Shown here: positions 48,997-50,953 of the stretch, piece after piece
Layout of the letters: each line of letters begins with the position of its first letter
Position numbering within the stretch: position 1 is the first letter of the stretch
Origin: Escherichia phage phiWec186
Sequence record: LC739535.1
DNA length: 64,000 nucleotides
Reading direction: 5' to 3' (one strand)
Notes under the pieces: model-generated
What the model was told of the DNA's origin: nothing
The model's database searches: none
What the model saw: the letters and a program-made list of their open reading frames with translations, nothing else
Translations under genes and position numbers: made by a program

Positions 48997-49220
48997 GTAC
49001 AGCATTTTATGTACGTAGTGGGGAAGAAGATTTCCTTGCTTCTTTCGACAACGATTGCGATCTTGAAGAAATGTATGAAGACATGTTGGATTACGCCAAA
49101 GGACAAGGCTTTACGAGTGTTGATCATATGTTGGCAACTTCAACCATAATCTTGGATCAAGATTTGGATGAGATCTGCAATCGATTAAAAATTGCATTAT
49201 TTACTTGGGACGAAACATAA
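48993..49220 (+). CDS. hypothetical early protein
   Basis: Translationally coupled ORF. Confidence 0.45.
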   Translation: MSTAFYVRSGEEDFLASFDNDCDLEEMYEDMLDYAKGQGFTSVDHMLATSTIILDQDLDEICNRLKIALFTWDET

Positions 49221-49444
49221 TGGCAACAACATTCTATTTTGAAGGTAGTGAGAAAAAGACTTCCATTACCTTTCAAAGGGGTACACCAGCAGAAGATTTC
49301 TTATGGATGATAATCGATCATCTGAAAAGCGAAGGTATTCACCATATAGACGAGTATTTCGCAGAGTCTACGGACTGGCAAAGCGTTGTTATGGAAGATG
49401 TTATTTTCGAACTACACCATATTATTAAGGAGGAGGGAATTTGA
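49220..49444 (+). CDS. hypothetical early protein
   Basis: Translationally coupled ORF. Confidence 0.45.
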   Translation: MATTFYFEGSEKKTSITFQRGTPAEDFLWMIIDHLKSEGIHHIDEYFAESTDWQSVVMEDVIFELHHIIKEEGI

Positions 49445-50556
49445 AACAGACTAATCAGACACTTTACGGTAAAGACTCAAATGGTAAACTGAAGCAATGG
49501 ACTGTTTTCACAGACGGGGCAACAGTTACCGTAGCTCACGGTAAAGTTGGTGGGAAGATTACACAAAAATCATACGAGGCAGAAGCTAAAAACACTGGAC
49601 GTGCAAATGCAACCACTCCAGAAGAACAAGCTGAAGCTGAAGCTTTTGCCAAATGGACTAAGCAACTGAAGAATGGTTATTATAAAACCACGGAAGAAGC
49701 AGAGAACCATGTTCCATCTACACCAATGAAATGCCAGGACTATAAAGATTTTGCGCATAAGGTGGTCTTCCCTGGGTATGCACAATACAAACTGAATGGC
49801 TTACGTTCAATGATCAACATGAAGGGCGAATGTTTGTCTAAAGCTGGAGAAGTTTACAAACTCCCTCCGCACTGGCAAGGTATTCCAAACTTCATCAGCG
49901 AAGTTGTTGGTCATCCTCTGGATGGGGAAGTGTTCGCTGGTCTTGGTGTTCTTAGTTTGCAACAGATCAACAGCGCATGGAAAAAGCACAATGAGAATAC
50001 ACCGCTCCTCAACTATTATGTTTACGATGTTCCTGTGGCAGATATGCCATTTGAGAAGCGTGTTGAAGTATTAGCGGCTCTTAAAGCTGTAGCCGAAGAT
50101 AACGGTTTGGACGAACTGATCTGTGTCGTACATACAGAGTATATTGAAAATCAAGAACAGTTGGATGCATTTTATGCTAAAGCTTTACTTGAAAAAGCTG
50201 AAGGTATCGTGTATCGTAATGCTCATGGTGTCTATGAGTTTGATAAACGTTCCTATGACGTGATCAAACGAAAACCGCGCCAGACTTTGGAAGTTAAAGT
50301 TATTTCTATGCGTTCTGATAAAAATAACGATGGGGTGTTGACAGGTGAGATGGAGAATGGTAAACTTGTTGAGTTCTTGATGCGAAAAGATGCTCACGAA
50401 ACTATCAACTACCGTAAAGCAGAGAATGCCGAAACTTTGATTGGTCAGTTTGTTGAGATCGAGTATGAAGAATTTTCTGATGAAGGTATCCCAACTAAAC
50501 CAGTCGGTGTACGTCTTCGTAAAATGATCCCAGGGACTTGGGAGCCAGCAGAGTAA
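49441..50556 (+). CDS. ATP-dependent DNA ligase-like nucleotidyltransferase
   Basis: Motif I YKLNGLR (K-x-N-G-x-R), motif III-like LDGEVF, motif V-like EGIVYRN, KRK...K tail; TTG start overlapping the upstream stop, after AAGGAGGAGGG. Confidence 0.55.
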   Translation: MKQTNQTLYGKDSNGKLKQWTVFTDGATVTVAHGKVGGKITQKSYEAEAKNTGRANATTPEEQAEAEAFAKWTKQLKNGYYKTTEEAENHVPSTPMKCQDYKDFAHKVVFPGYAQYKLNGLRSMINMKGECLSKAGEVYKLPPHWQGIPNFISEVVGHPLDGEVFAGLGVLSLQQINSAWKKHNENTPLLNYYVYDVPVADMPFEKRVEVLAALKAVAEDNGLDELICVVHTEYIENQEQLDAFYAKALLEKAEGIVYRNAHGVYEFDKRSYDVIKRKPRQTLEVKVISMRSDKNNDGVLTGEMENGKLVEFLMRKDAHETINYRKAENAETLIGQFVEIEYEEFSDEGIPTKPVGVRLRKMIPGTWEPAE

Positions 50557-50566
50557 AGGAGGTTGT

Positions 50567-50755
50567 ATGTTGATTTTAACAGTGTATATCTTGTTGTCAG
50601 TATTGGCTGTATGCTGTATGTTCCTTAGCTGTTGCAAAGATAAGACACTTTTAGTCTCTGTAGCAAAAACTATAGATGCGATAATGGCGGGTATCGGGTA
50701 CGCAGCAGTGATCTACATTTTCTGTTTTTACTTTGTGGCTGAATGGGTTAATTAA
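50567..50755 (+). CDS. small membrane protein (two TM helices)
   Basis: Hydrophobic segments ILTVYILLSVLAVCCMFL and IMAGIGYAAVIYIFCFYFV. Confidence 0.45.
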   Translation: MLILTVYILLSVLAVCCMFLSCCKDKTLLVSVAKTIDAIMAGIGYAAVIYIFCFYFVAEWVN

Positions 50756-50764
50756 GGGGGATTT

Positions 50765-50953
50765 ATGGGTGTTGAAGTTTTTCTGATTCTTTTGTTGCTT
50801 TCTATTGTGGCTTGTGGTATTATTATGGCTTCTACATTCCCATTAAACACTTGGTGGCGAAAATTAAGTCTGATGCTTATATACTGTGCAGCAGGTGCAC
50901 AAATGGGTTCGGTTGTTATCTACTTGACTGAACTCGCAAAAAATTATTTTTAA
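50765..50953 (+). CDS. small membrane protein (two TM helices)
   Basis: Hydrophobic segments VFLILLLLSIVACGIIMA and LMLIYCAAGAQMGSVVIYL. Confidence 0.45.
   Translation: MGVEVFLILLLLSIVACGIIMASTFPLNTWWRKLSLMLIYCAAGAQMGSVVIYLTELAKNYF

Follow-up and report, generated by a model that had tools for sequence, protein, structure and literature searches.

A probable ATP-dependent DNA ligase of Escherichia phage phiWec186 with asparagine at the motif I aspartate position

In the 64,000-nucleotide stretch of Escherichia phage phiWec186 DNA that we analyzed (the window; record LC739535.1), both the list of open reading frames (ORFs) and the letters themselves place an ORF of 371 codons followed by a TAA stop on the plus strand at 49441-50556. 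This gene, whose product we refer to as the phage ligase, sits in a long run of plus-strand genes in which the stop of one gene overlaps the start of the next or lies close to it. A metallophosphoesterase gene is its upstream neighbor, and on the downstream side lie genes for a pyrophosphohydrolase of the MazG-like kind, a recombination-associated protein resembling RdgC, an exonuclease of PHROG 107 and an exonuclease subunit of DNA polymerase (PHROG 403) with an RNase_H-superfamily fold, with thymidylate synthase and ribonucleotide reductase genes further downstream. As judged from the full annotation of the related phage PsgM04F, other parts of the genome encode DNA polymerase I and a primase/helicase. 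Two adjoining ORFs of 62 amino acids each (50567-50755 and 50765-50953, plus strand) separate the ligase gene from the MazG-like one; related phages list them as hypothetical, and both are strongly hydrophobic in sequence and probably encode small membrane proteins. The ORF at 49205-49444 and the small plus-strand ORFs around it are joined by overlaps of 1-4 nt (ATGA/TTGA) or separated by gaps of 10-15 nt, an arrangement that suggests an operon with translational coupling. Ten tRNA genes (Met twice, Ile, Pro, Gln, Gly, Thr, Tyr, Ser and Arg) occupy 40506-42563 on the minus strand, with the block of structural genes on one side and the early/replication block on the other.

The ligase ORF opens with a TTG codon at 49441-49443. 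The ORF upstream of it ends at 49444 in a TGA stop (49442-49444), and the two codons overlap in the sequence TTGA. The GGAGG core of the Shine-Dalgarno element AAGGAGGAGGG stands either 4 or 7 nt ahead of this TTG, and the element is itself encoded by the final codons (K-E-E-G-I) of the upstream gene. The closest in-frame stop on the 5' side is a TAA at 49426, four codons away, and the next in-frame start is the ATG of codon 96. The original prediction that TTG is the only usable start after a strong ribosome-binding site, overlapping the upstream stop, is therefore upheld. We rejected Met96 as a start, since initiation there would remove the whole N-terminal domain, which is conserved from residue 8 onward. 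For comparison of start codons we relied on an alignment-based scan of viral contigs, a single-protein scan having given just six close loci. Four related contigs with 74-85% protein identity (L004, L005, L007 and L008) carry ATG at the homologous first codon, and a 100% identical contig (L006) also starts with TTG. The same coding sequence was called by the annotators of phiWec179 and PsgM04F. Because TTG is the only candidate before Met96, relatives begin with ATG at this position and the annotations agree, the TTG at 49441 is the genuine start, one substitution away from ATG. It would be served by the strong Shine-Dalgarno element, and the TTGA overlap suggests that its translation is probably coupled to that of the upstream gene.

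The gene is 100% identical at the DNA level to its counterparts in Escherichia phages phiWec179 and phiWec181 (Stephanstirmvirinae, Phapecoctavirus) and 99.1% identical to that of Pseudomonas phage PsgM04F, which carries the annotation ATP-dependent DNA ligase. It is a previously uncharacterized member of a known ligase family, near-identical genomes being already annotated with a ligase at this place. Relatives were found by tblastn in 750 phage records, including phi92-like, rV5-like, Felix O1-like and PAK_P1-like phages. In the PsgM04F genome (OR584014.1), no second full-length ligase is annotated; a 64-residue coding sequence labeled "DNA ligase" at 77873-78067 of that record, outside the window, was considered as a second ligase and set aside as a labeling artifact on account of its length. 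The PsgM04F record bears a Pseudomonas coronafaciens host label, yet at the ligase locus it is 99.1% identical to an E. coli Phapecoctavirus. The features of the gene and its product are collected in the table.

Table. Positions in the window of the Shine-Dalgarno element, domains and sequence motifs of the phage ligase gene
Feature	Position	Strand	Remarks
Shine-Dalgarno element AAGGAGGAGGG	49427-49437	+	Encoded in the last codons of the upstream gene
Ligase N-terminal domain, residues 1-95	49441-49725	+	Beta-sheet packed on a long helix, WGR-like fold
Nucleotidyltransferase (adenylation) domain, residues 96-280	49726-50280	+	PF01068 match over residues 96-278
C-terminal OB-fold domain, residues 281-371	50281-50553	+	Weak PF14743 match; full-length fold match to AsfvLIG, TM 0.78
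Motif I, K117-L-N119-G-L-R122	49789-49806	+	Codons AAA CTG AAT GGC TTA CGT
Motif III, L160-D-G-E163-V	49918-49932	+	E163 invariant; D161 in 125/144 sequences
L173-Q174	49957-49962	+	Equivalent to AsfvLIG nick-site Leu211-Gln212
Motif IIIa, Y192-Y-V-Y-D196-V-P	50014-50034	+	Position 195 F/Y in all; D196 in 133/144
Motif IV, E254-G-I-V-Y-R259	50200-50217	+	E254 and G255 invariant
Motif V, V274-I-K276-R-K278	50260-50274	+	K278 invariant; K276 in 143/144
Motif VI region, G349-I-P-T352-K353-P-V-G-V-R-L-R360-K	50485-50523	+	Placed by alignments; R360 in 137/144

The protein had been proposed to be a ligase-type covalent nucleotidyltransferase with ligase-like motifs III and V, and its domain content agrees: all of the nucleotidyltransferase motifs are present, and the Pfam DNA_ligase_A_M model (PF01068) matches with 40.4 bits, well above its cut-off of 26.2 bits (E 3.4e-10). 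Only one other Pfam model matches at E<=1, DNA_ligase_OB_2 (PF14743), and it does so weakly (E 0.013, below its gathering score). All 76 relatives in our alignment match DNA_ligase_A_M, and 54 of them match DNA_ligase_OB_2. PHROG 114, the family of ATP-dependent DNA ligases, covers residues 2-361 with an E value of 3e-75, while the NCBIfam matches are to DNA-ligase models only, every one below its cut-off. An AlphaFold (AF2) model built from 37 homologs has a mean pLDDT of 92.1, and when it was searched with Foldseek against the PDB, the best matches were DNA complexes of the African swine fever virus DNA ligase (AsfvLIG, NP419L; PDB 6IMJ/6IMK/6IML/6IMN), with E 9e-25 and a TM score of 0.78 over about 400 aligned columns. 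AsfvLIG is likewise the best solved relative by sequence profile (E 4.5e-26 with the close-homolog alignment), and a profile of the 76 relatives (28-50% identity) aligns with residues 61-411 of its 419 at E 1.7e-56. Chlorella virus ligase is the second-best PDB family by the latter profile (E 4.7e-41), and the minimal Lig E enzymes come after it. On these grounds we take the ORF, with a probability of about 0.9, to encode the ATP-dependent DNA ligase of the phage itself, an ordinary representative of a large phage family to which AsfvLIG also belongs; its activity, cofactor and substrate are assigned by homology.

The asparagine in motif I had been taken as a possible mark of an RNA ligase or a capping-like enzyme, a suggestion that the profile and fold searches do not support. 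Of the three kinds of profile, only that of DNA ligases matches the phage ligase; RNA-ligase models (PF09414 or other) and the capping-enzyme model (PF01331) give no match in Pfam at E<=1. The best 50 fold matches are all DNA ligases, with no RNA ligase or capping enzyme among them. An RNA-repair enzyme would have its precedent in the K-x-N-G that forms motif I of fungal Trl1 (PMC6379707) and of the archaeal Rnl3 enzyme MthRnl (PMC4797309), and a conceivable substrate in the tRNA cluster of the window, should its products need repair. Moreover, the RNA_ligase model PF09414 is cross-matched by 18 of the 76 distant relatives, although these matches probably represent overlap between related nucleotidyltransferase models. 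The phage ligase nevertheless has an OB domain, as do the many relatives matching DNA_ligase_OB_2, whereas Rnl1, Rnl2, Rnl3 and Trl1 are not known to have an OB/motif VI module. Trl1 and MthRnl act on RNA and have other C-terminal modules, and their similarity to the phage ligase, in Pfam at E<=1 and among the best 50 folds, does not rise above the superfamily level. In addition, the gene is situated in a DNA replication/recombination block, and its closest solved homolog with the same asparagine, AsfvLIG, seals nicks in DNA. An RNA ligase at this locus is thus highly improbable. A GTP-dependent capping-like nucleotidyltransferase would share the nucleotidyltransferase-plus-OB architecture, and PF01331 is cross-matched by 6 of the 76 distant relatives (best E 9e-6). 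However, besides the lack of a match to the phage ligase itself, the protein carries a DNA-binding-type N-terminal domain in common with AsfvLIG, and bacterial mRNAs are not known to be capped in such a way; the probability of this alternative is close to negligible.

The presence of asparagine where motif I usually has aspartate is confirmed by the sequence: the canonical Asp of K-x-D-G-x-R is absent from the phage ligase, and Asn119, encoded by the AAT at 49795-49797, takes its place. Had the catalytic lysine belonged to a canonical K-x-D-G elsewhere in the protein, the substitution would have been only apparent, but every alignment (Pfam, Lig E 4d05 and AsfvLIG) places this lysine at K117, and a reading of the full 371-residue sequence finds no second K-x-D-G. 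K117 is accordingly the predicted AMP-accepting lysine. The residues K117, G120, E163, E254, G255, K276 and K278 are invariant across the 76 relatives (28-50% identity), and the position of D196 is occupied by Asp or Glu. L173 and Q174 are both invariant among close homologs, and leucine is found at the former position in 114 of 144 representatives.

In AsfvLIG, the segment K151-R-N153-G-V-R156 aligns residue by residue with K117-L-N119-G-L-R122, so that K117, N119, R122, L173 and Q174 correspond to AsfvLIG K151, N153, R156, L211 and Q212. Chen et al. found that AsfvLIG binds ATP and seals nicks, with Asn153 in the same place and conformation as Asp570 of human ligase 1 (HsLIG1) (PMC6344480). 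In the same study, N153D, which was made only in combination with L402R/Q403F, gave activity far below that of the wild type and no gain (PMC6344480). Since an enzyme with Asn153 binds ATP and seals nicks, K-x-N-G is compatible with ordinary ATP-dependent DNA ligation. The proposal that the asparagine alters adenylation chemistry meets a direct counterexample here, and the residue is the majority form in close homologs and makes up 39% of distant ones (see below); what may stand of that proposal is a quantitative effect of Asn119 on the fidelity or on the single-step rates of the phage ligase. The likeness to AsfvLIG has its limits. Two of the four nick-site residues described as unique to the viral enzyme, N153 and L211, are shared as N119 and L173 (HsLIG1 has Phe635 at the Leu211 position), whereas L402 and Q403 are replaced by T352 and K353. 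Overall identity is just ~20%, and the N-terminal domain (NTD) comprises 120 residues in AsfvLIG and ~95 in the phage ligase. AsfvLIG is, moreover, an error-prone enzyme of base-excision repair in a eukaryotic virus.

Other ligases resemble the phage enzyme in part. The Chlorella virus PBCV-1 ligase (PDB 2Q2T, 1FVI) shares the nucleotidyltransferase and OB_2 core but has no N-terminal domain, reads K-I-D-G-I-R in motif I and has Arg-Phe (in PRFPVF) where the phage ligase has Thr-Lys. The same core is found in the minimal Lig E enzymes and the bacterial WGR-NT-OB_2 ligases (PDB 4D05, 6GDR, 8U6X). Lig E is without a DNA-binding appendage, unlike the phage ligase; a bacterial cluster in which an annotated WGR domain is added to the NT-OB_2 core comes closer, resembling the WGR-like fold of the phage protein (PMC7470946). 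The ligases of phages T4 and T7 share the superfamily motifs and, by inference, a nick-sealing role in phage replication, but they are much more distant in sequence. Both have K-x-D-G. T4 ligase binds DNA through a domain that is alpha-helical, and T7 ligase is not known to have a DNA-binding domain.

Asparagine is common at this position throughout the family. Among 121 close sequences (the 120 closest clusters and the query), motif I reads KLNG in 109 and KLDG in 12, and among 143 distant cluster representatives (~30-50% identity) aspartate occurs in 87 and asparagine in 56 (39%), the Asn form being kept in homologs with identities as low as 30%. Fitch counting, on a neighbor-joining tree that is a rough one, gives at least ~26 changes between the two residues. 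Because the position switches repeatedly across the family, the sequences argue for a tolerated change and against a separate enzyme class. With active AsfvLIG carrying Asn153 and 56 of 143 family representatives carrying asparagine, the motif I aspartate of ATP-dependent DNA ligases is a consensus feature and not an absolute one. In 18 of the 143 representatives, Asn replaces the motif I arginine (as in KLNGVN), with a strong enrichment in the Asn type: 15 of the 56 Asn-type members have it and 3 of the 87 Asp-type members. This arginine normally contacts the AMP ribose, which makes the double variant more surprising than the aspartate-to-asparagine change alone.

The motif I residue also appears to vary together with the OB domain. 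In HsLIG1, Asp570 of motif I forms a salt bridge beneath the nick with Arg871 of the OB domain, beside Phe872, and these two OB residues have been equated with Leu402 and Gln403 of AsfvLIG (PMC6344480). By the family profile, T352 and K353 of the phage ligase align with that Leu-Gln pair and with the Arg-Phe of the Chlorella virus segment. Arginine at position 352 is present in 1 of 56 Asn-type and 23 of 87 Asp-type representatives, and lysine at position 353 in 33 of 56 and 13 of 87, respectively, comparisons for which the Fisher test ignores shared ancestry. These counts are suggestive of a tendency for asparagine to occur where the OB-domain arginine partner of aspartate is missing, the statistics treating relatives as independent. 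We read Asn119 as a variant of the motif I aspartate that is neutral to adaptive in its lineage, asparagine being found mainly in members that lost the salt-bridging arginine, as the phage ligase with its Thr352 and Lys353 would have done. In Pmar-Lig, a water molecule that ligates the catalytic metal is held in place by the motif I aspartate (PMC6698739), and the amide of asparagine could still hydrogen bond to such a water, as Asp does in canonical ligases.

Six distant members of the family (P0128, P0162, P0182, P0184, P0197 and P0215; 706-785 residues) carry an insertion of ~340-400 residues right after the motif I glycine, their sequences reading QPKL(D/N)G up to the split and CF.Y... after it. 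Three of them (P0128, P0182 and P0215) were scanned with Pfam: their insertions score above the cut-off for LAGLIDADG_2, and for Intein_splicing they score close to the cut-off or under it. The insertion in the split homologs is an intein within the catalytic motif.

We also considered that the gene might encode a catalytically weakened or inactive relic, with the host LigA performing the real nick sealing; E. coli indeed has an NAD-dependent ligase of its own. According to work cited in PMC4797309, Chlorella virus ligase reportedly cannot do without its motif I aspartate in step 2, and by that precedent Asn119 might slow a step in the phage ligase. The asparagine of Trl1 and MthRnl, by contrast, is reported to be dispensable for activity (PMC4797309). 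Against a relic, however, the other catalytic residues (K117, E163, E254, G255, K276 and K278) are all invariant, the Asn form persists across homologs of as little as 30% identity, and AsfvLIG is active with Asn, its multiply substituted N153D form being the impaired one. The persistence of inteins at motif I in relatives speaks in the same direction, as their retention there implies selection for a functional host protein. We therefore regard a relic as very unlikely and retain the assignment to a functional DNA ligase.

In the phage ligase, residues 1-95 are the counterpart of the AsfvLIG NTD, with which they share a WGR-like fold. The AsfvLIG NTD was first reported as a completely novel fold, with Asn91 and Gln98 as DNA contacts (PMC6344480). 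The aligned residues of the phage ligase, N56 and Q63, are both invariant in the family, and DNA binding by this domain is presumed by analogy with AsfvLIG. When the corresponding part of AsfvLIG is deleted, that enzyme no longer binds or ligates DNA. An annotated WGR domain joined to an NT-OB_2 core is already on record for bacterial ligases, from Williamson and Leiros in 2020 (PMC7470946). The Pfam WGR model (PF05406) matches neither the phage ligase nor any of the 76 relatives, and we therefore use the term WGR-like for a resemblance in fold only.

The chemistry of ligases proceeds in three steps that are standard and established for the superfamily. In the phage ligase, K117 would attack the alpha-phosphate of ATP to form ligase-AMP, and the three domains would close around nicked duplex DNA. 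The AMP would then be passed to the 5'-phosphate of the nick, and attack by the 3'-OH would seal it. From the genome context and homology, the most likely role of the enzyme is the sealing of nicks left in phage DNA by Okazaki-fragment synthesis, recombination and repair during phage replication.

Three points were not found stated in the literature that we searched: that a large phage family has the AsfvLIG N-terminal domain together with its Asn/Leu nick-site residues, that the AsfvLIG-type N-terminal domain is WGR-like in nature, and that the aspartate/asparagine state covaries with the OB-domain arginine. Each is an incremental addition. More speculatively, the sharing of Asn119 and Leu173 with error-prone AsfvLIG, along with Thr-Lys in place of Arg-Phe, might mean that the clade is mismatch tolerant or unusually permissive for nicks in DNA/RNA hybrids or modified DNA, with switching between Asp and Asn tuning fidelity or substrate range in concert with the OB residue; we consider this unlikely, if conceivable. 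The gene itself, as the phage's replicative/repair DNA ligase, is of small weight for basic biology. Its wider meaning lies in the comparison with AsfvLIG, whose Asn153, Leu211 and N-terminal domain, presented as unique in the structure paper, are common to a very large phage ligase family. AsfvLIG is thereby placed inside a phage-derived family, consistent with the earlier proposal of a phage or bacterial origin by Yutin and Koonin, in whose analysis the viral enzyme falls into a cluster of ATP-dependent ligases from bacteria and phages (PMC2806865). These shared features weaken the idea of drug targets specific to African swine fever virus, and the covariation with the OB-domain arginine offers a simple structural rationale for the tolerance of K-x-N-G that engineers of phage ligases could put to the test.
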